Below, piece after piece: positions 1,321 to 63,099 of a stretch of DNA of 64,000 bases. Under the pieces are notes generated by a model. That model searched no databases and had not been told where the DNA came from. It saw nothing but the letters and a program-made list of their open reading frames with translations. A program made the translations under genes and the position numbers. Source of the DNA: an uncultured Acidobacteriota bacterium (GTDB lineage Bacteria > Acidobacteriota > Thermoanaerobaculia > Thermoanaerobaculales > Sulfomarinibacteraceae); contig CAVWAW010000026.1 of assembly GCA_963753035.1 (NCBI GenBank), positions 2,838 to 66,837 on the forward strand. The letters run 5' to 3'. Position 1 is the stretch's first letter, and each line of letters begins with the position of its first letter.

Positions 1321-1361
1321 CGCCTCCAACGACCACCTCCCATCTCGAACGGGATCCAGAT

Positions 1362-5132: not shown

Positions 5133-5177
5133 GAAAGAGGCGACACACCGACGAATCTCGGCGAGGGCTCGACTACA

Positions 5178-6368: not shown

Positions 6369-6470
6369 GACTGGGATTAATCTACACGTTGAGCGTGCCC
6401 TACGCTGCCGGATTTGCTTGCCTCGGCGGGCCAATGGTCGGGGGATTCAGATTGACCGGTCTGGGTTTTC

Positions 6471-8922: not shown

Positions 8923-8938
8923 TCGCCACCTCCCCTCG

Positions 8939-10829: not shown

Positions 10830-10835
10830 CAGTTC

Positions 10836-12378: not shown

Positions 12379-12542
12379 GTTTGTTCGACGGCGTTGTCAT
12401 ACGTATTCCCTACCGCAACCGATCACCAGAGGAAAAGGAACAGCCGAAAACAAGCGAGCATGATGAAAAACCAGGCTTGAACTCCAGCCGTTTATTGCCG
12501 AATCAAGTCGTCCGAGCATGATCAATCCGAACTTCACCATAT

Positions 12543-13283: not shown

Positions 13284-13732
13284 ACCTTCCCCCGTAATCT
13301 GCAATTGAGTATCAATTTTAAACAACTTGGAAGCCGCTCTTGCTCAACGGGTGGACACACCCAGTGGGCAACAGACACAGGAACCTGCGCTGGTGGGAAC
13401 ATAGGGCCGATTGGGTTCACCCAACCGTCTCTCATCCCGATATCAAAGGACTCATTCACGGCCATCTTCGCTTCTCCAGACACCCCTGTCGCCCGCCTTT
13501 GGGGCGACTTCCGGATCGCTTAAATTTTTCGGCCCTCCGAGGACCTTGCATTTTAGCACAAAATCCGTTTCCTGTCTGCGCCCACGCTCACGATTCTCGG
13601 TTCAACACCGCGAATTGACGTACACCGGCTCAGAGCGAGCAACTGAACAAGTGTTTGGATCCATGTAACATACTTATTCAACAGTGGTTTGATGATTGTC
13701 AGCCCCGGTGAGTCTCAACCGGTGTGAACACA

Positions 13733-13762
13733 GAAAAACGCCCGGCGTCACCGCCGGGCGTC
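13733..13762 (-). terminator. rho-independent terminator downstream of the secreted protein gene
   Basis: On the minus strand ACGCCCGGCG-GTGA-CGCCGGGCGT (10-bp GC stem) is followed by TTTTT. It lies 28 nt after the stop at 13790-13792. Confidence 0.75.
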
Positions 13763-13789
13763 TTTGTTTGGGGTTGATTCCGTTGTCGA

Positions 13790-20721: not shown

Positions 20722-20810
20722 CCCGCACCTGCCGCTGGTGTTAAGATGCCACTCCGGATCTGCACCTGGAACCCGGGCGTTCACAGGTGCGTATATTTAT
20801 GGGGGGCGAT

Positions 20811-21827
20811 ATGAAATTCGACAACGTACAGATCCTGAGCGTAGCGCACATCGACGCGCCGCACGCTGAGCGTTCCGATGAAATCGAGTCGAGACTCGAA
20901 GCCACCATGAAGCGACTGGGCGTCCCGCCGGGAATGCTCGAGAGATTTTCGGGGATCAAGAGCCGCCGCCAATTCGATGAGGAGATGCCGCCGAGCGAAG
21001 CGGCCGCCAAGGCCGGCGAGCGCGCCATCGAGAAAGCGGAAATCGACCGGGCACAGCTCGGAATCGTGGTCAACACCTCGGTCTGCCGTGATTTTGTCGA
21101 ACCATCGACCGCCTCCATCGTGCACCGCAGCCTCGGCCTCTCGCCGAACTGCCTCAACTTCGACATCTCCAACGCATGCCTCGCCTTTATCAACGGCATG
21201 GAGATGGTGAGCAACATGATCGAGCGGAAGCAGATCGAATACGGCATCGTGGTCAACGCCGAGAACACAAAACACGCCACCAGGAGCACGATCGAGCGGC
21301 TGAGTCGGCCCGACGCCACGATGGAGGCATTTCGCGATGCGTTTGCAACCCTGACCCTCGGGTCCGGAGCGGTGGCGATGGTCCTCGCCCGCGCCCAGGG
21401 CAAACCCGGCGAGCACCGATTCCTCGGTGGTGTCAACCTCTCGGCGACCGAGCACTGCCGGTTGTGCTACGCCTCGGTCGACAACATGGTCACCAACGCC
21501 AAGAAACTCCTCACCCACGGTTTGGAACTCGCATTCAAGACCTGGTCGCGGGCGCGGGAGGTTCTCGCATGGACCCCGGACAATATCGACCACTTCATCA
21601 TCCACCAGGTCGGCAAAGCCCACACCGAACGCTTCGCCCGGACCCTCGGCATCGATCTTCAGAAGATCTTCCGTCTCTATCCGAACCACGGCAACATCGG
21701 GCCCGCCGGTGTTCCCATCGTTCTGTCGAAACTCATCGAAGAAGGAAAACTCAACGCCGGCGATCGAATCGCGCTCATGGGAATCGGCAGCGGCATCAAC
21801 TGCACCATGTCCGAGATCGTCTGGTAG
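20811..21827 (+). CDS. 3-oxoacyl-ACP synthase III (KAS III / FabH-like) family protein
   Basis: Intact. Active-site Cys context DISNACLAFINGM, His in FIIHQVGKAH, Asn in YPNHGNIGPAGVPI, thiolase-fold length (~338 aa). Confidence 0.85.
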   Translation: MKFDNVQILSVAHIDAPHAERSDEIESRLEATMKRLGVPPGMLERFSGIKSRRQFDEEMPPSEAAAKAGERAIEKAEIDRAQLGIVVNTSVCRDFVEPSTASIVHRSLGLSPNCLNFDISNACLAFINGMEMVSNMIERKQIEYGIVVNAENTKHATRSTIERLSRPDATMEAFRDAFATLTLGSGAVAMVLARAQGKPGEHRFLGGVNLSATEHCRLCYASVDNMVTNAKKLLTHGLELAFKTWSRAREVLAWTPDNIDHFIIHQVGKAHTERFARTLGIDLQKIFRLYPNHGNIGPAGVPIVLSKLIEEGKLNAGDRIALMGIGSGINCTMSEIVW

Positions 21828-32735: not shown

Positions 32736-35700
32736 CTAGCGTTCGATCCAGGTCCACCCCCGGTTGTCTTCCGCCGTGTCCCAGTCCACGACAACGACGT
32801 AGGCCGGACCCGCATCGCTGACATCTTCCAGGCTCGACCCGTGCCGCATTACCACCGCTCGCTGAACCGGGGACGCCCCCCGAATGTCGTTGTAGATGAC
32901 CAATGCCTGCGGCGGGAAATCGGCGGTGCCTAGATCTCCGCTGGTCACGCAGTTCCAATTTCCTCCACCGTCACCATCCAGCGGCCGGGCGCCGGCCAGG
33001 GTGCTGACGACAACGCAGTTCGCCTCGTTGTCGAGTTCGAAGACCCTGTTTCCGCTCGGCCCGGAGAGCTCGAGTCGAACCCAACCGGTGTTGTCGGCAC
33101 AGGTTCCGAGATCCGGCACCACACACCAGAACGGCTCGCTTCCGAGGATGCCGGTCGCGGTTTCTCCGGTGCGCAGGACTTCGGCCCGCACCTGTCCGTC
33201 GATCCGGCGCCACAGGCAAAGCACCTGCAACGGCCGATCGGCCCCGCCAAGAGCGCCGCTGCCGTCGACGGCGAGATCGAGTTCCCCGGGCGGCAGGGTC
33301 GCCGTTCCCTCCGCTTCCGTCAGCCGGTCGATGACAACCGCCTGTCCGTTGTCGAGCTCGAGCCCGCCGGGCCGCGCGATGACCTCGGATGAACCCACCG
33401 GCAGGGCTTGGAGAAAAACCGGATCGTCGGTGCCGTTGTCCACCAACGACGCCCAAGCGGCGAAGACGCAACCGGGCGTCGCCGAGGTGAGAGCGAGGGT
33501 CACCGGCTCACCGTCATCGGCGCCGACCCCGGCGAGCACGCGGTTACGCTGCATCGCCTCGAAGGGCCGGAGGTCATACGACCGGCTCACGATGACCTCG
33601 CCGCCCGTGCCGAGGAAATCCACGTCCACGGTCATGGGCTGCCGACACAGACTGACGAGCCCGAGGTTGGATCGTCGACCCGCGTCGGGATCAGGACTCT
33701 CGATGAGCGCCGACAGGACAGCTGCCTCGAAGGAGTGGATCGCCTCCTCGAGACCCCCGACGGCGACGCCCTGGCCGTACGACCCGGCGTCGACGGTCGT
33801 GAAGGTGCGGCTGGCGCCGGCGACGGTCGCGGGTGAGCAGGCGATCCGCATCGCCCCCGCCCGCTCGATCCCGAAGAGATCGCCCACCGCATCGGCGATA
33901 ACCAGCGTCGCGCCCGGATCGAGTTCGCGGACCACGCTGGTCGGGTTGGAATTTTCGCGACCCCGCTCGAGGAGATCGATCCGGCATGTCGACGCCGTGC
34001 CCGCTGTCTCGGTGAGGATGAGTTCCGACCGCCAACGAGCGGATTCGACACCCGGCAGGCTCGCCACGGCCGGGACGAGCAAGTCGTCATTGCCATTGAC
34101 CAACCAGCCCAACTCGCCCGACCAGCCGAGGATCGCCACACGCCCGTCCCCGAAGGCCCGCAATACGGCGTCGGTCTGTGGGAATCCCGGCACCGCCACC
34201 GGCGCCCACGTGATCCCGTCGAAGCTCTCGCTGAAACCAGCTTCGTTGTCCCAGTCATTCTCGACCGTCGTGGCGAGGAAACGATCACCGGTCCAGACGG
34301 GAGAACCGTAGACATCGCTGACCTTGGTCCAAGCCTCACCATCCGAGCTGAACCAGAGCCCACGGGTTCCGTACTGCGGACTGGCGACGACATAACCGAC
34401 CGGGCCGGCGGCAACGCCGTCAAGGTAGGCCCCGGTAGCGACTTGGCTGCTTTGCCACTCGACGCCGTCGGCGCTTCTCGCGAAGAACTCGCCTCCCACC
34501 GCCGCGACCTCGGACTCGCCCCGGACGATTCGGATCAAGGTTCCCGGCAACACCCCGTTGTGGGTCTGCCAGTTCAGACCATCGCGCGAGGTCATCACTG
34601 TTGCTCCCCCGGCTACCGCGACCCAGCGGACTCCGCTCCACGCCGCATCCCAGATCGACTCGGCGCCCTCCACGCTTCGCCTGGTCCAGGTCTCGCCGCA
34701 GTCGTCGCTGACAAAGAGTCTGGTCGGCCCGTACGAAATCACCTGGTCGCCGTTTCCTGCCAGAAATCGGAACCTCACTTCGCCGTCAAACGACCGCGGA
34801 AGCCACTGCCGAAGATTCTCGGTCAACGCCATGCCCCCCCTTCCGGCGGCGACGGCGCCCTCGCCACAGGGGACGATCTCTCCTGCGATCCCAACGACGG
34901 AGAGGCGGGGTCCGATGGAGAGACGCCACCCGCCGGGCGGACGGGCCGGCGCCCGGTAGACCGGGTCACCGGTACCGTTGTCCACCACCGAGGCGTAGGC
35001 GGCGACGGCAGCGACGGTTGGATCGAGATTGATCGACGCGTGGGCGCCGTCCAACGGCGCGTTGCCGCCGAGCACGTCGGTGCGCTGGAGGAAGCCGCCG
35101 GGCGGCAGGAGATCCAGGAGTTCGCCGATGAAGCCTCCGTCGGACGAGATGAAACTCGTCCGGGCCGTGACCGGAGCCGTCGATGCCGAGGCGAAACCGA
35201 GGTTGGTGCGAAAGGCGTTGTCGCGGACGAGTCCAAGCAGCCGTTTCGTCCCCCCCGTCAGGGTAGCCGGCTCGTACGCCGGGATGAGCTGGCCGAAACC
35301 GCCGGCAGCGGTCGTGGTCACCGTGCGGGAACTCGCCACCAGCGGCAGATCCGACGACAGTACCAGGCTCCCGACTGCGTCGTTGGGCGTGAGCTCGCCG
35401 ACCACATCCTCAACCACCGTGGTTTCACCGGCTCGCAGGTGCAGGCTCAGCGCAGCAGGGTCACCGCCACTCAGCCCGACGCCGACGGTGGCGGCCTGAG
35501 GGTTCGAATTGAAGACGACGAGATCGGTGGACCATTGGGTTTCGCCGATCCCCGGGGCGTGCGCCGCAGCCGGGATCAGCAGCCGCGTCGCGCCGGGGGC
35601 GTCGGCCCGGGGTTCGAGCACGATCAACTGGGGATTGGATCTCGGCGAACTGATCGAGCCCGAGTCGCAGGCTCGCCTCGCCCTCACGTCAGCCAACCAG

Positions 35701-37925
35701 GTTCTCGACACCGTCCAGTCGAGCTCGAACGTGTGTTCGAGCACGTCGAGGTTCTCGGTGATCCAGTGGCCGACGGCCTCCGTCGGCCGGACCCAGAGGG
35801 AGTAGTTCGAGGCGCCGGGGTCGGACCACCTCAGAGTCACCGCGCCGGTGTCGGGGTTGATCTCGGGTGGCGCCAGGATGGGCGCCTCGACCTCCTCGCA
35901 CGGATCTGCGACCTCGACCACCGCGGACACGGCATCGACGCCATCCGGACCGGTGACCGTCAGCTCCACGGTGTATCGGCTCTCGGCAGAGAACACGTGA
36001 TCCTCCGTCGGCCCATCACCGCCGGTCCCGTCCCCGAAGCTCCATTGGTACCCGTCCACCTCACCGAGGCTCCGGTCGAGGAAACGCACCGACTCTCCGG
36101 GACTGGGCTCGACCGGCCGCCAGGTAAAAGCGGCATCCGGCGCCGAACCTGTTGTCGATCCGCCCTCGCGGGAGATCAGCCCGTCGCGACCGACCACGAT
36201 CAATCGCCCCTCGGGCTCGACCAGGTCGATGAGGTCGTGTCCGGGTGGAACGATCTCCATCTCCCACGCCAGCCCGTCGGCGCTGGTCATCAGCACCCCG
36301 CCGGCGCCCACCGCTGCGAAGCCACCTGCCACCGCCCGCACCGATTGCAGGGCGCGGCTTGTGCCGGACGCGACCGTCTGCCAGTTCACCCCGTTGGTGC
36401 CTGTCAGAATGGTCCCTGCGTTTCCCACGGCCACGAACCGTCCTCCGGCCCACGCCACCGACCACAGGTCGACCGAGGTCGGTGGGGCGATCCGGGTCCA
36501 TACGGCGCCATCGTCACTCCACGCCATCTGCCCGTCGATGCCGACCACCACGAGGCGGCCATCGCCCGTCGCCAGGTCAGCCATCCGGCGCGCCTGCCAT
36601 GGGAGCTCGCGGAAGATCCAGGTCCGGCCGTCGGCGCTGGAGCCAAGATCGGAGTCTGCGAGGACCAACCACCGGGATCCGTCCCACTCGACGGCGTTGA
36701 CCCATCCCGCCACGTCCCACACCCGTTCCCAGGCCAGACCGTCCGGGCTCAGAAAGAGGTCGGTCCTGCCACCGAAGCAATGATCAAACTCGGTTGCGGC
36801 GACGAGAAAGCCACCGTTCCCGGCGCCCACGGTTCCAACGAGCCGGTCACTGATCTCGGCGCGATCCGCCTCGCGCCAGGCCACGCCGTCGGTCGAGGTC
36901 AGAACGGATCCGTATCCGTAGGGATAGACGCCGCAGTAATCGTTGGAGAGCTCGATGATGCGACCGCCGCCAACCACCACACCCGAAGGACCCGCGGCTG
37001 CAGAAACCAGGTCAACCCCACCGAATCCGGTGAGCCCACGCCAGACGAACGTCTCACCGGCCTCGGAGATCAATCCCCCTCTGCCGACACCGATCACCCT
37101 CTCGCCAGCGCAGGCGAGATCGCGAAGTCCAGGTCCGTAGGAATCGCTCCACAGACGGTTCCAGTGGATCCCGTCACGGCTCGACGCGCCGCTGAAAGCA
37201 TCGGACGTCACGACGAATCGTCCCCAACAGTGGGTCACGGCAGTGGCGGCGTCCATGAGATCAGCCCGTGTCCAGGACATCCCGTCGGAGCTGACCCAAC
37301 CATCACCTTCGGCGTCCCAGACCACGACGAGGCCGGCGCCGGTATCCACAACGGTTGGGCGCGAGAAGCTCGCCGCCGGCTCCGGCATCCAGTTCACGCC
37401 GTCAGCGCTCCACAGCACCCGGCCGCCGTCACCCACCACCAACCACCGATCGGTGAGCCACACCACTCCGCGGAGAGTCCCGCCGCCGAATTCGGTCACC
37501 GTCCACGCGAGCCCGGCCCGGCTGAACGCCACCGTGCCGCCGGTTCCGACAGCGACGAAGCCCAACGGTCCCGCCGCAACCGCCACCAGGTCGGCCCCGG
37601 ACAAGGGCGGCTGCGACCGCCAGAGACCTGGGGCCTCGCTCGCCATCACGGTCCCGTCCTCGCCCACCGCCACGGCAAGGTCACTGCTGCCCGCGACCGC
37701 TACAAGATCGACGTCGGTACCGCTGGAGACAATCGACCACGGGTCGTCCGCCTGCCGCTCGAGGATTGTCCCGAATTCGCCGACCGCAATCTGGCGACCA
37801 TTCGCGAGGACCGCAACGCCCTCGAGATCGGCCTGGGTGGGCAGAGGGTTGACGGCCTGCCAGTCGTTCGCAGCGGCGGCGGTCGTCAGCAGGACCACCG
37901 CGCAAGTAACGAGCATTCGCGTCAT
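32736..37925 (-). CDS. giant secreted protein (1,729 aa): two Ycf48/BNR-like beta-propeller regions, a PKD domain and two copies of an uncharacterised ~215-aa module
   Basis: Intact ORF. Signal peptide MTRMLVTCAVVLLTTAAAA. There are >=14 blades with [ST]-x-DG-x-x-W (SADGVNW, SSDGMSW, STDGVAW...). PKD: YQWSFGDGTGGDGPTEDHVFSAESRYTVELTVTG. The modules end ...AYASVVDNGTGDP and ...AWASLVDNGTDDP. Confidence 0.85.
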   Translation of the reverse strand: MTRMLVTCAVVLLTTAAAANDWQAVNPLPTQADLEGVAVLANGRQIAVGEFGTILERQADDPWSIVSSGTDVDLVAVAGSSDLAVAVGEDGTVMASEAPGLWRSQPPLSGADLVAVAAGPLGFVAVGTGGTVAFSRAGLAWTVTEFGGGTLRGVVWLTDRWLVVGDGGRVLWSADGVNWMPEPAASFSRPTVVDTGAGLVVVWDAEGDGWVSSDGMSWTRADLMDAATAVTHCWGRFVVTSDAFSGASSRDGIHWNRLWSDSYGPGLRDLACAGERVIGVGRGGLISEAGETFVWRGLTGFGGVDLVSAAAGPSGVVVGGGRIIELSNDYCGVYPYGYGSVLTSTDGVAWREADRAEISDRLVGTVGAGNGGFLVAATEFDHCFGGRTDLFLSPDGLAWERVWDVAGWVNAVEWDGSRWLVLADSDLGSSADGRTWIFRELPWQARRMADLATGDGRLVVVGIDGQMAWSDDGAVWTRIAPPTSVDLWSVAWAGGRFVAVGNAGTILTGTNGVNWQTVASGTSRALQSVRAVAGGFAAVGAGGVLMTSADGLAWEMEIVPPGHDLIDLVEPEGRLIVVGRDGLISREGGSTTGSAPDAAFTWRPVEPSPGESVRFLDRSLGEVDGYQWSFGDGTGGDGPTEDHVFSAESRYTVELTVTGPDGVDAVSAVVEVADPCEEVEAPILAPPEINPDTGAVTLRWSDPGASNYSLWVRPTEAVGHWITENLDVLEHTFELDWTVSRTWLADVRARRACDSGSISSPRSNPQLIVLEPRADAPGATRLLIPAAAHAPGIGETQWSTDLVVFNSNPQAATVGVGLSGGDPAALSLHLRAGETTVVEDVVGELTPNDAVGSLVLSSDLPLVASSRTVTTTAAGGFGQLIPAYEPATLTGGTKRLLGLVRDNAFRTNLGFASASTAPVTARTSFISSDGGFIGELLDLLPPGGFLQRTDVLGGNAPLDGAHASINLDPTVAAVAAYASVVDNGTGDPVYRAPARPPGGWRLSIGPRLSVVGIAGEIVPCGEGAVAAGRGGMALTENLRQWLPRSFDGEVRFRFLAGNGDQVISYGPTRLFVSDDCGETWTRRSVEGAESIWDAAWSGVRWVAVAGGATVMTSRDGLNWQTHNGVLPGTLIRIVRGESEVAAVGGEFFARSADGVEWQSSQVATGAYLDGVAAGPVGYVVASPQYGTRGLWFSSDGEAWTKVSDVYGSPVWTGDRFLATTVENDWDNEAGFSESFDGITWAPVAVPGFPQTDAVLRAFGDGRVAILGWSGELGWLVNGNDDLLVPAVASLPGVESARWRSELILTETAGTASTCRIDLLERGRENSNPTSVVRELDPGATLVIADAVGDLFGIERAGAMRIACSPATVAGASRTFTTVDAGSYGQGVAVGGLEEAIHSFEAAVLSALIESPDPDAGRRSNLGLVSLCRQPMTVDVDFLGTGGEVIVSRSYDLRPFEAMQRNRVLAGVGADDGEPVTLALTSATPGCVFAAWASLVDNGTDDPVFLQALPVGSSEVIARPGGLELDNGQAVVIDRLTEAEGTATLPPGELDLAVDGSGALGGADRPLQVLCLWRRIDGQVRAEVLRTGETATGILGSEPFWCVVPDLGTCADNTGWVRLELSGPSGNRVFELDNEANCVVVSTLAGARPLDGDGGGNWNCVTSGDLGTADFPPQALVIYNDIRGASPVQRAVVMRHGSSLEDVSDAGPAYVVVVDWDTAEDNRGWTWIER

Positions 37926-38060
37926 CACGGACCTTCCTGTCCCCGGAAGCACCTGCCCATAGTACGGATGCACCCGGGGAGACGTCTACCGCCAACGGCC
38001 ACCCCTGATCAACACCATTCGGCACGTCCGACGCGCCGCCGCAATTCGTCCGACGAATTG

Positions 38061-39592: not shown

Positions 39593-42264
39593 ATGACGGA
39601 AAGAAAGAAGCTCTACCTCATCGACGGGCCGAACATCGCGTTCCGGGCGTTCTTCGCCATCGGCGGGATGACCAACTCCGCCGGGCTGCCCACCAACGCC
39701 CTCTTCGGCTTCACCAACATGCTGCTCAAGCTCATCCGCGACGAGCGCCCCGACTACCTGGCCATCACCTGGGATCCCAAGGGCGGCTCGTTCCGCGAGC
39801 GTGAGTTCCCCGACTACAAGGGAACCCGACCCGATATGCCGGAAGCCCTCCGCACCCAGATGCCCCACTTCTCACGCGTCGCCGAGGCCTTCGACATGCC
39901 CTTCCTCTGCATCGACGACTTCGAGGCCGACGATGTCATGGGCACCCTCGCCCGCCGTCACGAAGACGAACTCGACGTCGTTCTCGTCACCTCGGACAAG
40001 GACCTCATGCAGCTCGTCACCGACAACGTCACCCTCCTCGACACCATGAAGGACCGCCGGATCTCGTTTCCTGAGGTCGAGGAGAAATTCGGCTGCCCAC
40101 CCGAGCTCGTCCCCGACGCCCTCGGGATCTGGGGCGACTCGTCGGACAACATCCCCGGTGTCAAGGGCATCGGAGAAAAGGGCGCCAAGGCGCTCCTGGC
40201 CAAATGGAAGGGCCTCGACGAGATCTACGCCCACATCGACGAGGTGACACCGCCCGGCGCCAAGGCCAAGCTCGAACGCGACCGTGAGCAGGCCTTCCTC
40301 TCGCGCGACCTCGCCACCATCCGCGACGACGCCCCGGTCGAGGTCGCCCTCGATCAACTCGCCCTGGTCTGGCCGCCCGACGAGGACCGGGCACGCGATC
40401 TCTTCACCGAGTTCGAGTTCCGCGGTCTGCTGCGCGAGTTCGGCGGTGAGATGACCAGCATCGACCGCAGCAAGTACCGGCTCGTCACCGACGACGACGA
40501 GTTGGCGGAGCTGGTGACGTTTCTCGAGGGCGTGCCGCGCTTCGCCCTCGACACCGAGACCACATCGCTGGATTCCATGCGCGCCGAACTCGTCGGGCTC
40601 TCGTTCTGCGCCGATGACGAGGTCGCCTGGTATGTTCCCGTGGCCCACGCGGTGCTCGAGCCCCAGCTCGACTGGGCGACGGTGCGACCCGCCCTCGCTG
40701 CGCGTCCTCACCGATCCCGCCAAGGGCAAGACCGGTCAGAACCTCAAGTACGACCTCGAGGTCCTCGCCAACCACGGGGTCGAGCTCGCCGGAATCGACG
40801 GCGACACGCTGCTCGCCGACTATCTCCTCAACCCCGACCGCCGTTCACACAAGCTCGACGATCTCGCGCTGGTCTATCTCAACCACAAGATGATCTCCTT
40901 CGCCGACGCGGTCGGCAAGGGCGGGACCTTCGACTCAGGTGCCCCTGGACACGGCCCGCGACTACGCCGCCGAGGATGCCCACGTCACCTGGCTGCTCGA
41001 CAACAAGCTCCATCGAGCGGCTCGAGGAAGAGGACCTCGACGAGCTCTACCGCGACCTCGAGCTGCCCCTGATGCCGGTGCTGGCGCGGATGGAGATGAA
41101 CGGCATCGCGGTGGATGTCGCCGCCCTCGCCGAGCTCTCGATCGAGCTCGAGACCGGGATCGCCGAAGCCGAGACAACGGTGCTTCGAGGCCGCCGGACG
41201 CGAGTTCAACATCGGTTCGGTCAAACAGCTCCGGGAGGTTCTCTTCGAGGAGCTGGGGCTGCCGGTGATCAAGACGACCAAGACCGGGGCCTCGACCAAC
41301 GAACAGGTCCTCACCGAGCTGGCCGATCCAGCACCCGCTGCCCCGCGCCATCCTCGACTACCGGTCGCTGGTCAAGCTCAAGAACACCTATGTCGATCCC
41401 CTGCCCGAGCTCGTCCACCCCGAGACCGGCCGGATCCACACCTCGTACTCACAGACGACGGCCGCCACCGGGCGGCTGTCCTCCACCGATCCCAATCTGC
41501 AGAACATCCCGATCCGAACCCCCGAAGGACGGCGAATCCGGCGGGCCTTCGTCGCGCCCCCGGGACGGGTGCTCGTCGGCGCCGACTACTCGCAGGTCGA
41601 GCTGCGGATCCTCGCCCACCTCTGCGGCGGAATCGGCGGTTTCGCCGATGCCTTCGCCGCCGGCGCCGATGTCCACTCGGAGACCGCCGCGGGGCTCTTC
41701 GAGATCCCGCCGGAGGAGATCGACCGGCAGCAGCGGACCATCGCCAAGGCGGTCAACTTCGGCATCGTCTACGGTCAGAGCGCCTTCGGTCTCGTCCCAG
41801 CAGCTGCGGATTCCGCGCAGCGAGGCCAACACGCTACATCAAACGCTTCAAGGAGCGCTTCCCCGAGATCGAGGAGTACCGCGAACGAACCCTCGCCGGA
41901 GCGGCGGAGACCGGCTACGTGGAGACCCTCCTCGGTCGCAAACGACCGGTGCCCGATCTGAGATCGGGCAACTTCAACGCCCGCGCCGCCGCCGAGCGCG
42001 TCGCCATCAACACCCCGGTCCAGGGCTCGGCCGCCGATCTCATCAAGAAGGCCATGCTCACCGTCGATGCCCGACTCCGCGCCGAGTTCCCCGGCCAGCT
42101 GCATGCTGCTCCAGGTCCACGATGAACTGCTGCTCGAGGTCGACGAGGATCAGGCCGATGCCGTCGGCGAGATGGTCCGCGAGGAGATGATCGGCGCCAT
42201 CGAACTCTCGGTCCCGCTCGTCGTCGATCTCGGAGTCGGCAAGAACTGGGATGAGGCGCACTAG
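39593..42264 (+). CDS. polA: DNA polymerase I; reading frame broken 8 times as sequenced
   Basis: 5'-nuclease LYLIDGPNIAFRAFFA, GIWGDSSDNIPGVKGIGEKGA. 3'-5' exo ALDTETTSL, GQNLKYD. Polymerase motifs DYSQVELRILAH (A), RTIAKAVNFGIVYGQSAFGL (B), LQVHDELLLEV (C). The pieces cycle through frames 2-0-1-2-0-1-2-0-1. Confidence 0.9.
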
Positions 42265-53839: not shown

Positions 53840-56073
53840 ATGCTCCACCTCACGAGCCGTTCCGGAGGCCGCACATTGAAACTCACCCATCAACGACGGA
53901 AAATCACCATCGGACCAACCCGATTCGAGGCCTCCCGGACTGCCGACGGGGTCGCCGAACTCTGGGCGGACGACGACGACGCTCTCGCCTGCGCCCTCGG
54001 CGCCGCCCACGCCACCGACCGTCTGGTCCAGATGGTCATGGCCCGGATCGTCGGTCAGGGCCGGATCTCGGAGTGCCTCGCCGATGACGAAACGACCTTC
54101 GCCATCGATCTCTTCATGCGGCAGATGGGTTTTCGCCGCGAGGCGGACCGCGAGGTCGCGGATCTCGATCCGGAGGCGCGCCGTTTCGCCGAGGCCTATG
54201 CAGCCGGGGTCAACCACGTCATCGCAAACCGGCGGCGGCCGGTGGAGTTTGTCCTCGTCGGACACCGGCCCGCCGAGTGGACCCCGGCCGATACGCTCCT
54301 CACCATCAAACTCATGTCCTACCTCGGTCTCGCACAATCCCAGCAGGATGCGGAGAAGCTCATCATCCAGGCGATCCACGGCGGGACACCCATCGAGGCT
54401 CTCACCCGCCTGTTCAGCCCTCACCTCGACGGTCTCGATGACGAAACCGTCGATGCCATCCGCAACCTCGCCCACCTCGAACCCCTGCTACCCCCTGCCC
54501 TCCGGTTCCTACCCGGAGCGCCCAAAGTCGCGGCGAGCAACAACTGGGCGGTCAGCGGCGCCCGATCGGCATCGGGCAACCCCATCCAGTGCAATGACCC
54601 CCATCTCGAAATCAACCGCCTGCCTGCCATCTGGTACGAGGCGGTCATGCACACCGCCGACGACGATCGGGTCGGCGCCACCATGCCCGGAGTCCCGGGG
54701 ATGGTCATGGGCCGAACCCGGAACCTGTCGCTCGGATTCACCTACGGTTTCATGGACATGGCGGACTTTTTTGTCGAGGACTGCCAGAACGGGCGCTGCC
54801 GCCGTGGCGACGAATACCACGCACTCGACAGCCGGGCCGAGACCATTAGACGGAAAGAAGCACCCCGACGCGGAGATCACCATCCGCGAAAACGACCTGG
54901 GTGTTCTCGAGGCCGACCCTCTGCAGAGCGAACTCGCCGACGGGATCTATCTGACCCGGGCATGGTCGGGACACCGGGAGGGAACCGCCAGCTCTCTCGA
55001 CGCCATTCGGCGGGTTGTCCGATCGACCACCGTACCCGACGCGCAGGCCATCCTCCGCAAGGTTTCCATCTCGTGCAACTGGGTGCTCGCCGACCGCCTC
55101 GGCAATATCGGATACCAGCAGTCCGGGCTCCTTCCCGACCGCTGCCACTCCGGAGTCCATCCGGTCCCCGCCTGGCGGGGAGAAAACCACTGGCGGGGCC
55201 TGGTCGATCCGGATCGACTCCACTCGGAACTCAATCCGGCCGACGGCATCGTGGTCACGGCCAACAATGAAATCAACGCCCCCTCAGGCCCCATGGCCGT
55301 CAACCTGCCCATGGGCTCCTACCGCCACGATCGGATTCGAGCCCTGCTCGAAGCGAACAGCGAACACACCCCGGAGACCATGAAGGCCATCCAGCTCGAT
55401 CTCATGTCCCTTCAGGCCGAAGCGCTCATGGAGATCTGGCGCCCGCTGCTCCCGGACAGCCTGGCCGGGCGACTACTCGCGCGTTGGGACCTCCACTACG
55501 ATCTCGACTCACGCGGAGCGACCCTCTTCGAGGAGGCCTATCAACGGATTCTGCTCGAGGTCTGCGGCGAACGGATCTTCGGCCGAGACGTCTGGGACGC
55601 CCTGGTGGAAGAGACCGCCATCGTCGCCGACTACTATCACTTCTTCGACCGGATCCTGTTATCGGAAGATCCCTACTGGTGGGGCGAGGAGGGCCGCGAA
55701 GCGGTGCTGACGAGGATCCTCGGCGACCAGCTCACCCACCTCGATCTCTATCACGTGATGCCCTGGGGACGCCGCCGCCGGACGATGATGACCAATATCT
55801 TCTTCAACGGCAAACTGCCGCGAATGCTTGGCTTTGACCACGGACCCATCTCGATGCCGGGCAGCCGCGCCACCGTGATCCAGGGCGGCCTCTTCACCGC
55901 CCACGGCCGCGACCACCACCTTCGCTCCGTCCTGGCGGTTTATCACCGACATGGGCGCCGACACCGTGGAAACGGTGCTCGCGGGCGGTCCGTCGGGGAG
56001 CCGGTTCTCGAGCTGGTACACCACCGATGTCGAGCGCTGGTTGCTCGGGGAGTACAAGACACTCGAATTATGA
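53840..56073 (+). CDS. penicillin acylase family (Ntn-hydrolase, S45) protein, possibly an acyl-homoserine-lactone/beta-lactam acylase; 2 frame changes
   Basis: Self-processing site ...APKVAASNNWAVSGARSASGNPIQCNDPHL. NIGYQQSGLLP, ...IVVTANNEI. The tail ...SWYTTDVERWLLGEYKTLEL* is read after a shift near 55920. Confidence 0.8.
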
Positions 56074-56160
56074 ATGATGAATGATGAATTTCATCGCAGG
56101 TGCCTTTGGCTGCAGAGTTCTTAGTTTTTAGTTCTTAGTTTTTAATTCCATCGCAGCAGT
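56066..56160. repeat. heptad-repeat element, copy E (two different heptad blocks, each followed by CATCGCAG)
   Basis: AATTATGAA TGATGAA TGATGAA TTT-CATCGCAGG... then TTCTTAG TTTTTAG TTCTTAG TTTTTAA TT-CCATCGCAGCAG. The acylase stop TGA at 56071-56073 is the first rung. Confidence 0.75.
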
Positions 56161-58048: not shown

Positions 58049-59182
58049 ATGGACTACACGAATCCGCAACAGAACGAGGGGCCGGGCATCGACCTTCGTA
58101 GCGGAGAAAGCCACAGTCTGAAGCACGACGATTCGTGGCACGAGAACCTGCTTTCAGGTGTTTCGCGGACCTTTGCTCTGACCATTCCCCAACTCCCGAG
58201 CGGTCTGCGGGAGGCGGTCACCAACGCCTACCTCCTGTGCCGAATCGCCGATACCATCGAGGACGATCCGCTCCTCGATCCCGACACCAAGGATCGATTC
58301 CACAGCGCGTTCCTCGAGGCGGTCACGACCGGTCGCGGAGCAGATGATTTCGCGGCCGAACTCGCGCCGCTTCTGGCGCCGAGCACATTGGCGGCTGAAG
58401 TCGAGCTGATCGAAGAAAGCCCGCGGGTACTGCAGGTCACCCGAGGGATGCATCCAAGGCAACGCATCGCCATCCAACGATGCCTCGACACCATGAGTCA
58501 CGGGATGGCCAGCTTCGCACGGAGCAGAACCCGCGATGGGCTGGCCGACGTGGTCGAGTTCGAACGCTACTGCTATTTCGTAGCAGGGGTCGTCGGGGAG
58601 ATGCTCACCGAGCTCTTCTGCGACTACTCACCCGAGATCGACGCCATTCGCGATCAGCTCACGCCAAGGGCTGTCGGCTTCGGACTCGGGCTCCAGATGA
58701 CCAACATCCTCAAGGACATCTGGGATGACCTCGAGCACGACACCTGCTGGCTCCCACGCGACGTTTTCGAGCGCCACGGATACGATCTCACAACACTGGC
58801 GCCGAACCACAACGGAAACGGCCCGGCGTTCGCAGCATCGATGCACGAACTCATCGACATCGCCCAGGGTCATCTGCGCGAAGCTCTGGCCTACACGCTG
58901 GCGATGCCTCGCAACGAAACCGGAATCCGGCGCTTCCTGATCTGGGCCGTTCTGCTCGCAGTTTCCACCCTTGGAAAGATTTCGGATCATCCGCTGTTTA
59001 CCTCTGGTACGCAGGTCAAGGTTTCTCGACCCCGCGTCGCCGCCATCATCGCCGGCTCGAGCTCGCTCATACGCAGCAATGAAGGACTGAAAAAGCTGTT
59101 CAACACCGCCGCCCGGAGGCTCCCTCTGGATAGCGCCAACCAATTTTCCGCCGTGATCCGAAAGGAATCTGCAAACCCTTGA
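58049..59182 (+). CDS. sqs: squalene synthase (farnesyl-diphosphate farnesyltransferase; squalene/phytoene synthase family)
   Basis: Intact 377 aa. GVSRTFALTIPQLPSGLREAVTNAYLLCRIADTIEDD parallels the SRSF...YLVLRALDTLEDD region of eukaryote-type SQS. The second Asp-rich region is NILKDIWDD. Confidence 0.8.
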   Translation: MDYTNPQQNEGPGIDLRSGESHSLKHDDSWHENLLSGVSRTFALTIPQLPSGLREAVTNAYLLCRIADTIEDDPLLDPDTKDRFHSAFLEAVTTGRGADDFAAELAPLLAPSTLAAEVELIEESPRVLQVTRGMHPRQRIAIQRCLDTMSHGMASFARSRTRDGLADVVEFERYCYFVAGVVGEMLTELFCDYSPEIDAIRDQLTPRAVGFGLGLQMTNILKDIWDDLEHDTCWLPRDVFERHGYDLTTLAPNHNGNGPAFAASMHELIDIAQGHLREALAYTLAMPRNETGIRRFLIWAVLLAVSTLGKISDHPLFTSGTQVKVSRPRVAAIIAGSSSLIRSNEGLKKLFNTAARRLPLDSANQFSAVIRKESANP

Positions 59183-61416
59183 CCAGTTCCGCCTTCTCAT
59201 CGTTCCACAAGCTATCGGTCCAGGAACGCCTCCGGACCGTCCGTGACCGGGGCCTGCTCTCCTCGCAGGAGTGTCGGGCTCTGGGTAACGGCGAAACCCT
59301 CCTCGACATCAACGACGCCGACAATATGATCGAGAACGTCATTGGCGTCATGGGCATCCCCGTCGGTCTCGGGCTCAACTTCCTCATCAACGGCAAGGAC
59401 CACGTCGTGCCGCTCGCGGTGGAGGAGCCCTCCATCGTCGCCGCCCTGAGCTTCGCCGCCAAGACCGCCCGGCTGTCGGGCGGATTTACCGCATCGAGCT
59501 CGGATCCTATCCTCATCGGCCAGATCCAGCTGGTGGATGTCCCCCACCCGGTCAAGGCTCGGCATATCCTCGAAAGCCGCAAGGAGGAAGTCATCAACCT
59601 CGCCAACGGCCTCCACCCGAGGATGGTCGCGCGGGGCGGCGGCGCCGTCGATATCGAGGTGATCCTCCATCCCGCCACCCCCGACACATCCGAGATGCTG
59701 GTGGTCCACCTCCTCGTGGATACCCGAGACGCCATGGGCGCCAACCTGGTGAACACCATGTGCGAAGGGGTCGCCTCGTTTATCGAGAGCCTCACCGGCG
59801 GCAAGGTTTTTCTCCGCATCCTTTCGAATCTCGCTGATCGCTCCCTGGTCCGCGCCTCAGTGAGAATACCGGCCGAGAATCTGAAGACAAAAGGCCACGA
59901 TGGCGAGCAGGTCCGCGACGGCATCATCATCGCGAGTCAGTTTGCAATGGTCGACCCCTACCGCGCGGCAACCCACAACAAGGGCATCATGAACGGGATC
60001 GATGCGGTGGCCCTGGCCACCGGAAACGATTGGCGCGCAGTCGAAGCCGGCGCCCATGCCTTTGCCGCTCGCGGCACCCGTTACACCTCGCTCTCGCGCT
60101 GGACCAAGGGCGACGACGGGGCCCTCGTCGGCGAGATCGAGCTGCCGCTGCGGGTCGGCATCATCGGTGGACCGCTGAGCGCCAACCCTTCGGTCAGTAT
60201 GAATCTCCGGCTTGTCCGGGTCGACTCCTCACGTGAACTCGCAGAAGTGATGGCCGCCGTCGGGCTGGCGCAAAACTTCTCGGCGCTGCGAGCCCTCGTC
60301 ACCGATGGGATCCAACGCGGACACATGACCCTCCACGCCCGGAGCGTCGCGACCGCCGCCGGCGCTACACCCGAGATCTTCGACTCGGTGGTCGACAGGC
60401 TCGTCGCATCGGGCGAGATCAAGATCTGGAAGGCCAAAGAACTCGTCACCGAGGTCAGGGACCAGATGGGCCAAGGCATGGCCCCGGAAGAGCGCGAAGA
60501 GATGTCCGCCGGCAACGGCAAGATCATCCTCTTCGGCGAACACGCCGTGGTCTACGGCAGCCGCGCCATCGCCGCCCCGATCCCCCTCGCGGTACGGGCG
60601 CGGGTGGTCGACGAGAATGATGGTGTCTGGCTGGTGATTCCCCGCTGGGGCGTCGAACAGCGCCTCCGTCTGAATCCGGAGAAACAGATGTCGTTCGAGG
60701 TTCCGGCGGCGTTGATTCTCCGCAAACTCGGCCTCACCGACCGTTCGATGCGGATCGAGGTCTTCTCCGAGATCCCGCGCGCCATGGGTCTCGGCGGTTC
60801 CGCCGCGGTGGCGGTGGCCATCATCCGGGCCATCGACCGCCACTTCGATCTCAAGCTTACCGACGATCAGGTCAACGCCCTCGCCTTTGAGTGTGAGTGC
60901 GTCGCCCACGGCACCCCGTCGGGGATCGACAATACCGTTGCCACCTTTGGCAAACCTCTGGTCTACCGCAAGGCCGACCCGCCGGTCATCCGACCGCTTG
61001 AACTCTCAAAGCCCATCACCTTCGTGGTCGGGATGACCGGGGTCGAAGGGCTCACCGCCAAGATGGTCGCCCGGGTGCGCAACGGCCGCGACCGAAACCC
61101 GGATGTCTACGACACCGTCTTCCGCGGAATCGACGCCGTGACCCTTCAGGCCCTCGAGGCGCTCAAGCAACACGATCTCGAGCGACTCGGCGAGCTCATG
61201 AATATCTGTCAGGGGCTGCTCAACGGGCTCCAGGTATCGAGCTGGGAGCTCGAAGAGCTCATCCAGGTCTCGCGCGAAAACGGCGCGCTGGGGGCCAAGC
61301 TCACCGGCGGCGGCGGCGGCGGATCCATGATCGCCCTCTGCCCGGACAACGCCGACGCGGTCATCGAAGCAATCCAGGGAGCCGGCTATCAGGCCATGGA
61401 GGTCCGCATTGGCTGA
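59179..61416 (+). CDS. bifunctional class II HMG-CoA reductase :: mevalonate kinase fusion protein
   Basis: Intact 745 aa. The N-terminal ~430 aa match class II HMGR (VEEPSIVAA, DAMGANLVNTM, RAATHNKGIMNGIDAVALATGNDWRAVEAGAHA, GIQRGHMTLHAR). The linker is QMGQGMAPEEREEMS. The C-terminal GHMP kinase has GKIILFGEHAVVYG, PRAMGLGGSAAVAVA, KLTGGGGGGSMIAL. Confidence 0.9.
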   Translation: MTSSAFSSFHKLSVQERLRTVRDRGLLSSQECRALGNGETLLDINDADNMIENVIGVMGIPVGLGLNFLINGKDHVVPLAVEEPSIVAALSFAAKTARLSGGFTASSSDPILIGQIQLVDVPHPVKARHILESRKEEVINLANGLHPRMVARGGGAVDIEVILHPATPDTSEMLVVHLLVDTRDAMGANLVNTMCEGVASFIESLTGGKVFLRILSNLADRSLVRASVRIPAENLKTKGHDGEQVRDGIIIASQFAMVDPYRAATHNKGIMNGIDAVALATGNDWRAVEAGAHAFAARGTRYTSLSRWTKGDDGALVGEIELPLRVGIIGGPLSANPSVSMNLRLVRVDSSRELAEVMAAVGLAQNFSALRALVTDGIQRGHMTLHARSVATAAGATPEIFDSVVDRLVASGEIKIWKAKELVTEVRDQMGQGMAPEEREEMSAGNGKIILFGEHAVVYGSRAIAAPIPLAVRARVVDENDGVWLVIPRWGVEQRLRLNPEKQMSFEVPAALILRKLGLTDRSMRIEVFSEIPRAMGLGGSAAVAVAIIRAIDRHFDLKLTDDQVNALAFECECVAHGTPSGIDNTVATFGKPLVYRKADPPVIRPLELSKPITFVVGMTGVEGLTAKMVARVRNGRDRNPDVYDTVFRGIDAVTLQALEALKQHDLERLGELMNICQGLLNGLQVSSWELEELIQVSRENGALGAKLTGGGGGGSMIALCPDNADAVIEAIQGAGYQAMEVRIG

Positions 61417-61987
61417 TGTTGCGAACCACCCAACCAACGAGGTGGTTTCGAGTGAGGAAGAGCCGCTCATCCTTGTTGACGAATCCGATCGCGAGATCGG
61501 CCATCTCAGCAAGGGCGAGTGCCACGATGGCGAAGGCGTACTCCACCGCGCGTTCTCGCTTTTCATTTTCAACTCGGATGGCGAACTTCTGCTCCAGAAG
61601 CGCAGCGCCGAGAAACGCCTCTGGCCGATGTTCTGGTCGAACTCGTGCTGCAGCCACCCTCGCCGTGGCGAGTCCATGAACGTGGCCACCCGGCGCCGAC
61701 TGGAGCAGGAACTCGGAATGGCCGCCGATTTTCACCACCTCTTCACGTTCCAGTACCAGGCGCCGTACCTCGACCTCGGATCTGAGCACGAAATCTGTTG
61801 GGTCTATGTCGGGCTCTGTGATGATCCGCCCCGACCCAACTCAACCGAAATTTCCGCGATCCGATGGATCACGCCGGATGAACTCGACCGAGAGTTCGTC
61901 GATCGCCCCGAGGCCTTCACGCCATGGTTCGCCCAGGAATGGCCGCGGGTCCGCGATGTTTTTCACCGGGTACTGCGTTTGACCTGA
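61409..61987 (+). CDS. idi: isopentenyl-diphosphate delta-isomerase, type 1 (Nudix fold)
   Basis: Intact. HRAFSLFIFNSDGELLLQKRSAEKRLWPMFWSNSCCSHPRRGES...RRRLEQELGM. The TTG start overlaps the upstream stop. Confidence 0.85.
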   Translation: MADVANHPTNEVVSSEEEPLILVDESDREIGHLSKGECHDGEGVLHRAFSLFIFNSDGELLLQKRSAEKRLWPMFWSNSCCSHPRRGESMNVATRRRLEQELGMAADFHHLFTFQYQAPYLDLGSEHEICWVYVGLCDDPPRPNSTEISAIRWITPDELDREFVDRPEAFTPWFAQEWPRVRDVFHRVLRLT

Positions 61988-61995
61988 GGAGACCC

Positions 61996-63099
61996 ATGGG
62001 CATCCCACTGATTCAACAGCTCCGCATCGGCGGATACCTGATCAAACAGAAACTGAAGGGCCGCGATCGGTACCCGTTGGCGATGATGCTCGAGCCGCTT
62101 TTCCAGTGCAACCTCGCCTGCTCGGGCTGCGGCAAGATCGACCATCCCGACGAGATCCTCAAAAAGCGCCTCAGCGTTGAACAGGCCCTCGCCGCGGTTG
62201 ACGAGTGCGGCGCGCCGGTGGTATCGATTCCCGGCGGGGAGCCGCTTCTGCACGATGAGATGCCCGAGATCGTCAAGGGACTTGTGGCACGCAAGAAATT
62301 TGTTTATCTCTGCACCAACGCGCTGCTCCTCGCGCGCAAGATGGACGACTACGAGCCCTCCCCCTACCTCAACTTCTCGGTCCACCTCGATGGCAATCGG
62401 GAGCGCCACGACGCATCGGTCTGCCGCGACGGAGTCTACGATCGGGCGGTCGCCGCCATCAAGCAGGCCCTCGAACGCGGATTCCGGGTGACGATTAACT
62501 GCACCCTCTTCAACGGCGAGGACCCCGACGAGGTGGCGCTGTTCTTCGACGATGTCATGGAGATGGGGATCGAGGCCATCACGATCTCACCGGGCTACAG
62601 CTACAGCCGCGCGCCGCGCCAGGACGTCTTCATGAACCGGCGCGAGAGCAAACAGCTTTTCCGCGATATCTTCAAGCGTGGCGCCGAACGCAAGAAGAAA
62701 TGGGCCTTCAATCAGTCATCGCTTTTTCTCGATTTCCTCGCCGGCAACCAGGGTTACCAGTGCACGCCGTGGTCGAACCCGACCTACAACATCTTCGGCT
62801 GGCAGAAACCGTGTTATCTGCTCGTCGATGAGGGCTATGCCGAGACCTTTGCCGAGCTGATGGAAGAGACCGAGTGGGAGCGCTACGGAACCGGCCGCAA
62901 CCCCAAGTGCGACAACTGCATGGCCCACTGTGGCTTCGAGGGCACCGCGGTCGACGACACCTTCGCCCATCCGCTCAAAGCCCTCAAGGTCGCAATCATG
63001 GGGCCGGACACCGACAAACCGATGGTCGAAGATCCGCCGATCCAGTACCTGGACGATCACCGTGAGTCCAAGAAACTGCCGGTCAAACAGGCGGGGTGA
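61996..63099 (+). CDS. hpnH: adenosyl-hopene transferase HpnH (hopanoid side-chain radical SAM enzyme)
   Basis: Intact. YPLAMMLEPLFQCNLACSGCGKIDHP (CxxxCxxC), VSIPGGEPLLH, FVYLCTNALLL, SSLFLDFLAGNQGYQCTPW, GWQKPCYLL. There is a near-colinear match to HpnH sequences recalled from hopanoid producers. Confidence 0.9.
   Translation: MGIPLIQQLRIGGYLIKQKLKGRDRYPLAMMLEPLFQCNLACSGCGKIDHPDEILKKRLSVEQALAAVDECGAPVVSIPGGEPLLHDEMPEIVKGLVARKKFVYLCTNALLLARKMDDYEPSPYLNFSVHLDGNRERHDASVCRDGVYDRAVAAIKQALERGFRVTINCTLFNGEDPDEVALFFDDVMEMGIEAITISPGYSYSRAPRQDVFMNRRESKQLFRDIFKRGAERKKKWAFNQSSLFLDFLAGNQGYQCTPWSNPTYNIFGWQKPCYLLVDEGYAETFAELMEETEWERYGTGRNPKCDNCMAHCGFEGTAVDDTFAHPLKALKVAIMGPDTDKPMVEDPPIQYLDDHRESKKLPVKQAG

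Follow-up and report, generated by a model that had tools for sequence, protein, structure and literature searches.

A fusion of class II HMG-CoA reductase with mevalonate kinase, very likely bifunctional, in an uncultured acidobacterium and other bacteria

A 64,000-nucleotide stretch of contig CAVWAW010000026.1 (assembly GCA_963753035.1; hereinafter the window, with positions counted from its first nucleotide) from an uncultured member of the Sulfomarinibacteraceae (Acidobacteriota) contains a gene in which class II hydroxymethylglutaryl-CoA (HMG-CoA) reductase (HMGR) and mevalonate kinase (MVK), the enzymes of two consecutive steps of the mevalonate (MVA) pathway, are joined in frame within a single 745-aa polypeptide. 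This gene, denoted HMGR::MVK, very likely encodes a genuine bifunctional biosynthetic enzyme of the MVA pathway. The N-terminal class II HMGR would convert HMG-CoA to mevalonate with the use of two NAD(P)H, and the C-terminal kinase of the GHMP family would convert mevalonate to mevalonate 5-phosphate with the use of ATP.

HMGR catalyzes the committed step of the pathway and MVK the first ATP-consuming step; the two enzymes are major points of control and are widely used in isoprenoid metabolic engineering. A natural HMGR::MVK fusion that is kept in at least six bacterial phyla provides a test case for whether the fusing of consecutive enzymes brings a kinetic or regulatory gain, and it offers pathway engineering a compact part.

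Reading frame and domain architecture of the fused gene

The fused gene is a single uninterrupted open reading frame (ORF), with zero stops or frame changes between the two halves in both the ORF listing and the raw sequence (Table 1). These observations agree with the preliminary description of the window, in which an in-frame fusion of the enzymes of two consecutive steps, with no stop or frame change at the junction, had been proposed. The four strings quoted in that description, GHMTLHARSVATAAGA, IKIWKAKELVTEVRDQ, MGQGMAPEEREEMS and GKIILFGEHAVVYG, are all found in the protein, in that order, and the linker, which it located at about 60460–60510, occupies precisely these nucleotides (residues 428–444).

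Both halves are complete by the criteria of hidden Markov models (HMMs) and of alignment to structures in the PDB. In Pfam, the fused protein matches HMG-CoA_red (residues 14–387, E 1e-110), GHMP_kinases_N (512–590) and GHMP_kinases_C (658–737), and the PF00368 match in the HMGR half spans positions 2–368 of the 368 in the profile. In NCBIfam, the HMGR half scores 408.6 bits with TIGR00532 (HMG_CoA_R_NAD; cut-off 259.95) and the MVK half 260.2 bits with TIGR00549 (mevalon_kin; cut-off 163.05); therefore, both halves satisfy curated equivalog thresholds. The scores of the MVK half with the sister GHMP models, those of phosphomevalonate kinase (PMK), galactokinase and homoserine kinase, do not exceed 73 bits and are far under the respective cut-offs. 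No thiolase domain is detected in the fused protein by Pfam or NCBIfam, so that the architecture is not of the MvaE type (see below).

In PDB alignments, residues 5–427 are colinear with nearly the entire HMGR of Pseudomonas mevalonii (1qax, residues 6–426 of 428), so that the C-terminal flap is aligned through residue 426 of 428 and is complete, with helices at 378–432 in the AlphaFold2 model. Residues 443–738 align with full-length MVKs, namely that of Leishmania major (2hfs, residues 16–310 of 332), 4hac, 6mde, 2x7i and 2oi2, and the best PDB matches of the C-terminal half are all MVKs. A search of the PDB found no solved chain that spans both halves. Judging from these comparisons, the predicted protein displays all the defining features of both class II HMGR and MVK that could be tested.

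Table 1. Coordinates of the fused gene, its parts and its neighbors. Positions refer to the window or, where a locus is named, to that locus.
Feature	Position	Strand	Evidence and remarks
Whole fused gene HMGR::MVK	59179–61416	+	745 aa; TTG start, TGA stop (61414–61416); ORF listing and raw sequence
Class II HMGR domain, residues 1–427, including C-terminal flap with catalytic His382	59179–60459	+	TIGR00532; alignment to 1qax
Interdomain linker, residues 428–444 (17 aa)	60460–60510	+	DQMGQGMAPEEREEMSA; no homology to either parent enzyme
GHMP-family MVK domain, residues 445–745	60511–61413	+	TIGR00549; alignment to solved MVKs
Squalene-synthase-like gene (SQS_PSY), upstream of the fusion	58049–59182	+	Pfam SQS_PSY, E 4e-56; best NCBIfam match squal_synth, below cut-off
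Type 1 isopentenyl-diphosphate isomerase (Nudix fold), downstream of the fusion	61409–61987	+	NF002995, 166 bits (cut-off 127); TIGR02150, 154 bits
HpnH, adenosylhopane-forming radical SAM enzyme	61924–63099	+	TIGR03470, 550 bits (cut-off 225)
Stand-alone GHMP kinase beside the fusion, L020	9977–11050
Stand-alone GHMP kinase beside the fusion, L021	4400–5470
Stand-alone GHMP kinase beside the fusion, L043	8913–10004
Stand-alone GHMP kinase beside the fusion, L082	8848–9696
Stand-alone GHMP kinase beside the fusion, L032	8701–9996
Stand-alone GHMP kinase beside the fusion, L023	8705–9955

A fused gene in a single assembly could also be an artefact, whereby adjacent HMGR and MVK genes were joined through a lost stop or an indel, an eventuality raised in the preliminary description itself. 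Indel-type damage is indeed present in other conserved genes of the window (polA and the genes for a penicillin amidase and a WbaP-like sugar transferase), adjacent separate genes for HMGR and MVK exist in Oceanobacillus and Virgibacillus, and in a metagenome-assembled genome (MAG) of Archangium (locus L045) the two genes share the same frame with an in-frame stop between them. Nevertheless, the likelihood of an artefact is negligible, and this explanation is rejected because independent assemblies, complete chromosomes and RefSeq isolates share the architecture. The exact window protein is on record, and at 90% or higher identity it clusters with proteins of JGI, ENA and NCBI assemblies (37 members in all; among the 15 listed, the length is 745 aa in 14 and 725 aa in one). 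The best 120 clusters at 70–95% identity all contain the three Pfam domains in about 745 aa, and a search seeded with the protein of Cryobacterium levicorallinum recovered at least 120 further fused clusters (90% clusters), with RefSeq isolates among them. Among the RefSeq isolates that carry the fusion are Cryobacterium, Leifsonia rubra, Rhodoglobus aureus, Parafrigoribacterium humi, several Salinisphaera species and Endozoicomonas sp. G2_2. In a survey of species genomes (one genome per species, the best 80 loci, with frames checked from stop to stop), both domains lie in a single ORF in 49 loci that are complete and in three that are truncated by the contig end beyond the junction; the fusion-bearing loci include the complete chromosomes OZ241345, OY762279 and OZ253541 as well as cultured Cryobacterium. 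Furthermore, the junction DNA is gap-free across four assemblies (the window and its relatives at 95%, 90% and 84% identity), which differ there by substitutions only, and the relatives agree with the window in where the gene starts and in its overlaps of 4 nt and 8 nt with the neighbor genes. Judging by its contig name (k141_...), the assembly of the 95% relative appears to derive from short reads.

The polA gene (39593–42264, plus strand) is intact through the 5′-3′ exonuclease and part of the 3′-5′ exonuclease, to about residue 370, beyond which the polymerase motifs are spread over all three plus frames; it is broken either by several assembly indel errors or as a pseudogene. The penicillin-amidase gene (53840–56084, plus strand) consists of two overlapping ORFs in different frames (53840–55270 and 54084–56084), with the frame change near 54860, and the gene for the WbaP-like sugar transferase (7524–8922, minus strand) is split into overlapping frames that encode, respectively, CoA_binding_3 (7852–8922) and Bac_transf (7524–8432).

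Catalytic residues, direction and linker of the fused protein

The catalytic set of the HMGR domain, identified by alignment with 1qax, consists of E83, K268, N272, D284 and H382 (Glu83, Lys267, Asn271, Asp283 and His381 in the P. mevalonii enzyme), and that of the MVK domain, identified by alignment with the L. major enzyme and rat numbering, of K448, E454, H455, S541, E573, S581 and D584. The three GHMP motifs are represented by GKIILFGEHAVVYG (motif I, with K448, E454 and H455), PRAMGLGGSAAVAVA (motif II, with S541; GLGGSAA) and KLTGGGGGGS (motif III). All checked catalytic residues of both domains are invariant in 51 of 51 fused proteins from different species and, likewise, in a separate alignment of 83 sequences (83/83). 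The ratio of non-synonymous to synonymous substitution rates (dN/dS), estimated against the relatives at 84% and 90% identity, is 0.10–0.12 for the HMGR half and 0.09–0.10 for the MVK half. Across the family, the divergence of the two halves is correlated pairwise (r = 0.83, a value reached in 0 of 999 Mantel permutations), as is expected if both are inherited as one unit. Both halves appear to be kept by purifying selection, and neither resembles a decaying remnant.

GHMP kinases are difficult to assign from similarity alone, and the role of the fused domain as a kinase is read from its sequence. The domain could thus differ from a mevalonate 5-kinase, being a PMK, another sugar or acid kinase, or a silent regulatory or scaffold domain, and the real MVK could be the stand-alone GHMP kinase encoded beside the fusion in several operons (see below), which matches both PMK and MVK models below the cut-offs. 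Such an assignment is highly improbable. The fused kinase domain passes TIGR00549 by a wide score difference (260 vs. 163 bits) and reaches only 42–53 bits with the PMK models, its best matches in the PDB are MVKs only, and the MVK catalytic set (K448, H455, E573, S581, D584 and motifs II and III) is invariant in all 51 fused proteins; the dN/dS of about 0.1 in this half speaks against a decayed domain. The stand-alone neighbor kinase, for its part, has PMK as the best match in 5 of the 6 operons scanned, the kinase of L082 scoring slightly higher with the MVK model.

The second question about the bifunctional enzyme is the direction of the reductase reaction. In NCBIfam, RefSeq and JGI the protein bears the name “hydroxymethylglutaryl-CoA reductase, degradative,” which covers the first half only, and the catabolic enzyme of P. 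mevalonii, in which HMGR oxidizes mevalonate to HMG-CoA, is among the closest solved structures. The word “degradative” in the model name is historical, and the model covers class II enzymes in general. A degradative function of the fused protein is extremely improbable: the fused MVK would compete for the catabolic substrate, and all neighbors of the fusion are biosynthetic, either squalene synthase (SQS), isopentenyl-diphosphate isomerase (IDI), HpnH and squalene-hopene cyclase, or diphosphomevalonate decarboxylase (MDD), PMK-like kinase and IDI. Neither an HMG-CoA lyase nor a mevalonate transporter was seen beside the fusion. In addition, an invariant His stands in place of Asp146, the NAD determinant of the P. 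mevalonii enzyme, and there is an invariant Arg152, with Arg or Lys at position 148 in most sequences.

Mutagenesis of D146 and L148 in the P. mevalonii enzyme reportedly established Asp146 as the determinant that excludes NADP(H). In the 83-sequence alignment, H146 and R152 are invariant, and the window protein has H146, R148 and R152. The cofactor segment is closer to that of Streptococcus pneumoniae HMGR (5wpj), which we take to be NADPH-preferring, than to those of the NADH enzymes 1qax, 6dio and 6p7k. On the strength of these residues, a preference of the fused HMGR for NADPH is likely.

The linker separates two strongly conserved flanks, the end of the HMGR flap (…SGEIK[VI]WKA.E[IL]) and the start of the kinase (G.GK.IL.GEH.VVYG). 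Its length, measured from R427 to G447, varies from 13 to 39 aa across the homologs, and the mean pairwise identity is 9% in the linker, 63% in the HMGR domain and 53% in the MVK domain; the dN/dS of the linker, estimated against the same two relatives, is 0.29–0.39. AlphaFold2 modeling of the monomer from the 83-sequence alignment yields two confident domains (mean predicted local distance difference test score, pLDDT, of 81.6; predicted template modeling score, pTM, of 0.53), with pLDDT values of 53–70 only in the flap and linker, about residues 375–445, and no defined interdomain packing is predicted, at least in the monomer model. This pattern of linker divergence and low model confidence is the signature of a flexible tether, as opposed to a tunnel or a fixed interface. 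The proposal of the preliminary description that the fusion channels mevalonate directly is therefore unsupported, the linker being hypervariable in both length and sequence and the interdomain placement being of low confidence. In the mechanism envisaged here, a short flexible tether, unconserved in sequence, would hang from the end of the mobile HMGR flap domain, and the benefit of the fusion would lie in obligatory 1:1 co-expression, co-assembly and proximity, rather than in a physical channel. The small diffusible mevalonate made by the reversible reductase would be rapidly trapped in an ATP-driven reaction.

Class II HMGR and MVK are both homo-oligomeric in solved structures (1qax and 2hfs, respectively). 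True channeling or coupled regulation could involve a defined HMGR-MVK interface, higher-order assemblies that arise from the oligomerization of both parents, or the binding of a feedback inhibitor at the MVK domain that gates the tethered HMGR flap. The tether directly follows the final helix of the mobile flap domain, which bears the catalytic His; the order of the fusion and the position of the junction are conserved across phyla; and independent fusions in both orders, together with triple fusions (see below), suggest recurrent selection for physical linkage. With a linker that is conserved in neither length nor sequence, and with a model, limited to the monomer, in which the domain placement is of low confidence, such coupling is nevertheless unlikely. 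A specific form of it, in which a feedback-sensitive dimeric MVK carried on the mobile flap of a dimeric or hexameric HMGR forms a regulated supramolecular unit, either as mevalonate-retaining enzyme clusters or through inhibitor-gated flap closure, seems distinctly unlikely. If true, flap gating would amount to a product-feedback control not known for bacterial HMGR, and duplicated copies, such as the hopanoid-cluster paralog of the window, would be end-product-specific, separately regulated entry valves into the pathway.

Distribution, origin and known counterparts

Among the best 150 matches inspected in a HMMER search that was exhaustive over 1.84 billion representatives clustered at 50% identity, about 20 are HMGR-then-MVK fusions. 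The fusion is present in at least six bacterial phyla. The loci include those of Acidobacteriota (Thermoanaerobaculia and Candidatus Sulfomarinibacteraceae), many Gammaproteobacteria (Rhodanobacteraceae, Dokdonella, Nevskia, Chiayiivirga, Pseudomonadales, Woeseiaceae and Salinisphaera) and Actinomycetota (Nakamurella and Cryobacterium), as well as a Rhodospirillaceae MAG, Calditrichaceae, Caldithrix, Balneolaceae and Myxococcales. With at least 240 clusters, these approximately 20 representatives and RefSeq isolates, the architecture cannot be called rare; it is common. The possibility, entertained beforehand, that it is already annotated holds for the domains, both Pfam matches being precomputed in public databases, and fails for the naming, which mentions HMGR only. 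With “HMG-CoA reductase, degradative” as the sole name of the protein in public records, name-based pathway reconstruction will score MVK as missing in fusion-bearing genomes, and the MVA pathway is thereby under-called in Acidobacteriota, Gammaproteobacteria, Calditrichota and Actinomycetota.

The HMGR::MVK protein, abundant in public databases with both domains precomputed, is uncharacterized rather than undiscovered. No paper that describes or characterizes a natural HMGR-MVK fusion was found in the openly searchable full-text literature (subscription journals were outside the search), which bears out the statement of the preliminary description that no characterized fusion of this kind was known. 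The precedent named there, enterococcal MvaE, is the sole MVA-pathway fusion in a 2026 review on the diversity of isoprenoid pathways in bacteria, where the fusions given are MvaE and IspDF only. In one study, fused partners are mentioned solely as having been trimmed from the alignments (Hoshino and Gaucher, 2018). HMGR::MVK belongs among the bifunctional fusion enzymes of isoprenoid-precursor synthesis and, as such, is not deeply surprising to a specialist.

Among the closest known systems is MvaE of Enterococcus faecalis (acetoacetyl-CoA thiolase::class II HMGR), like the window protein a natural bifunctional MVA-pathway protein with a class II HMGR, and its HMGR half (PDB 7m1z) is homologous to residues 7–415 of the window protein. 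In MvaE, however, the HMGR is C-terminal, the partner is a thiolase, and the steps joined are the non-consecutive steps 1 and 3, whereas in the window protein the HMGR is N-terminal, the partner is a GHMP kinase, and the steps are the consecutive 3 and 4. IspDF of the methylerythritol phosphate (MEP) pathway is likewise a widespread natural two-enzyme fusion of isoprenoid-precursor synthesis but belongs to another pathway, consists of other folds and joins non-consecutive steps. The stand-alone class II HMGRs (1qax of P. mevalonii, 6dio of Delftia, 6p7k of Burkholderia and 5wpj of S. pneumoniae) possess the same catalytic Glu, Lys, Asn, Asp and His and the same flap, compared with which the window protein extends 318 residues past the natural C-terminus. 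The stand-alone MVKs (2hfs of L. major, 4hac, 6mde, 2x7i of Staphylococcus aureus and 2oi2 of S. pneumoniae) share with the window kinase the full-length GHMP fold, the catalytic Lys, His, Glu, Ser and Asp and the three motifs; the difference is that the N-terminus of the window kinase is tethered to HMGR.

The origin of the family was addressed with a rough neighbor-joining (NJ) tree of 214 HMGR domains, which has short internal branches and no support values. In this tree, a single 68-leaf clade takes in the window protein and every genome-derived fusion; 66 of its leaves are fused, and the other two are sequences of 432 aa and 566 aa that are possibly partial. About nine fused representatives are scattered among unfused enzymes outside the main clade. 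Strict monophyly of all fused proteins thus fails in the NJ tree, where a single large clade is accompanied by isolated singletons. The window gene, like most of the family, appears to derive from one principal fusion that then spread widely between phyla by lateral transfer; in addition, there were probably independent fusions.

Unfused counterparts of the same gene order also exist. In Oceanobacillus, Virgibacillus and Paucisalibacillus, the HMGR gene is followed by an adjacent MVK gene, the two being separate ORFs in different frames. The pairs of Oceanobacillus and Virgibacillus (Bacillota) and of the Archangium MAG have the same order as the fusion, show about 50% identity, and consist of genes that abut or overlap; they differ from the fusion in being separate ORFs, which lie in different frames in Bacillota and share one frame, interrupted by a stop, in Archangium L045. 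Hence the expectation that every genome match to residues 1–745 is a fusion fails for Oceanobacillus, Virgibacillus and Paucisalibacillus and for Archangium L045. It is plausible that the unfused adjacent pairs represent the pre-fusion state.

Several other combinations were encountered in public metagenomes by the HMMER search. HMGR::MVK::IDI triple fusions, in which the isomerase follows in frame as a third domain, are represented by P0122 and P0123, and fusions of the reverse order, GHMP kinase::HMGR, by P0145, P0148, P0157 and P0182. An HMGR::SQS::epimerase fusion (P0158) and HMGR::polyprenyl-synthase::SQS proteins (P0175 and P0187), 1162–1453 aa long, also occur; the latter would unite precursor supply and squalene synthesis in one chain. 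Class II HMGR is, in general, prone to fusion.

Genomic context of the fused gene

In the window, the fused gene lies in a hopanoid cluster, with the SQS-like gene directly upstream and hpnH two genes downstream (Table 1). The SQS-like gene and the fusion share 4 nt (TTGA, 59179–59182), the TGA stop of the former running into the TTG start of the latter, as also in L081 and L085, and the last 8 nt of the fusion (61409–61416) belong to the IDI gene as well, as in L081, L084 and L085; these conserved overlaps suggest translational coupling along SQS, HMGR::MVK and IDI. The start codon of the fusion is non-ATG, TTG in the window and GTG in the relatives. The match to the HpnH model starts at residue 25 of the ORF, and translation of HpnH probably begins downstream of 61924. 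The same block runs on, in the relatives at 95% (L085) and 84% identity, to a PNP_UDP_1 (HpnG-like) gene and a squalene-hopene cyclase gene (SQHop_cyclase); the window ends before the position at which the relatives carry these two genes.

The fused gene is duplicated in this acidobacterial lineage, and the window copy is the paralog associated with hopanoid synthesis. A 237-kb contig of a Candidatus Sulfomarinibacteraceae MAG holds both copies, one of the hopanoid-cluster type (L081) and one in an operon with MDD and the PMK-like kinase (L082), the latter paralog being 71% identical to the window protein, and on a 225-kb contig of an Acidobacteriota MAG two fused copies (L083 and L084) are located 35 kb apart. 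The contexts of the paralogs in L081–L084 are, on the one hand, hopanoid or IDI genes and, on the other hand, the MDD/PMK-like operon or a solitary position beside a Rieske oxygenase gene. The window copy presumably supplies mevalonate-derived precursor for the synthesis of squalene and hopanoids, and a functional dedication of this paralog to hopanoids is plausible from its context. The duplicated copy in the hopanoid cluster suggests precursor supply for one end product in an uncultured acidobacterial lineage. MVA-pathway gene sets are also embedded in terpenoid clusters of Streptomyces, as separate enzymes and with all six MVA genes. The window cluster resembles that arrangement in that a precursor-supply module is placed beside the genes for the end product and is unlike it in that only HMGR::MVK and IDI lie inside the cluster, the rest of the pathway being elsewhere.

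A second recurrent context is the operon MDD/PMK-like kinase/HMGR::MVK/IDI, found in L020, L021, L023, L032, L043 and L082 from several phyla. The MDD of these operons passes the TIGR01240 cut-off, and the IDI is of type 1. The C-terminal domain of the fusion is the only MVK-grade candidate in these operons, and its assignment as MVK is supported because they contain no other gene of that grade. The stand-alone GHMP kinase is divergent and, in L082, only 282 aa long; it is presumably the PMK of the MVA operons, though automatic naming would miss it as a PMK.

Several points count against the reading of the fused gene as a bifunctional biosynthetic enzyme with one main origin and, in the window, a role in hopanoid synthesis. 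Both enzyme activities and the biosynthetic direction are inferred from sequence, and the predicted preference for NADPH depends on a few residues and on the reported mutagenesis of the P. mevalonii enzyme. The PMK-like neighbor kinase is under the NCBIfam cut-offs for both PMK and MVK, so that the proposed division of labor between the two GHMP kinases follows HMM scores. The NJ tree that suggests a single main origin is unbootstrapped and leaves about nine fused representatives outside the main clade. In the 90%-identical relative (L084, 8001–10809), the fusion and IDI are present without adjoining SQS or HpnH. Finally, neither HMG-CoA synthase nor thiolase was seen beside the fusion in any locus examined, and the completeness of the pathway in fusion-bearing genomes is not implied by these loci.

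In L084, the DUF454 and SDR genes upstream are the same as in the window and in L085, despite the difference in SQS and HpnH. Elsewhere in the window, tblastn detected no second copy of HMGR or MVK, the fused gene being the one locus found, and Pfam scans of approximately 40 other ORFs revealed no HMG-CoA synthase, thiolase, PMK, MDD or MEP genes; an Rfam scan of the window gave no matches. A FabH-like gene for β-ketoacyl-ACP synthase III (KAS III; ACP_syn_III and ACP_syn_III_C) at 20787–21827 (plus strand) belongs to a family that includes acetoacetyl-CoA synthases feeding the MVA pathway in some actinomycetes; it is 38 kb away from the fusion, to which nothing connects it. The first part of the window (1–14000) has a lower GC content (55–58%, vs. 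60–68% elsewhere) and encodes an exopolysaccharide-type locus with a polysaccharide deacetylase, Poly_export/SLBB and an AAA ATPase, to which the split gene for the WbaP-like sugar transferase also belongs. The most GC-rich part (67–68%) contains a 1745-aa ORF (32736–37973, minus strand) in which only a PKD domain is recognizable.

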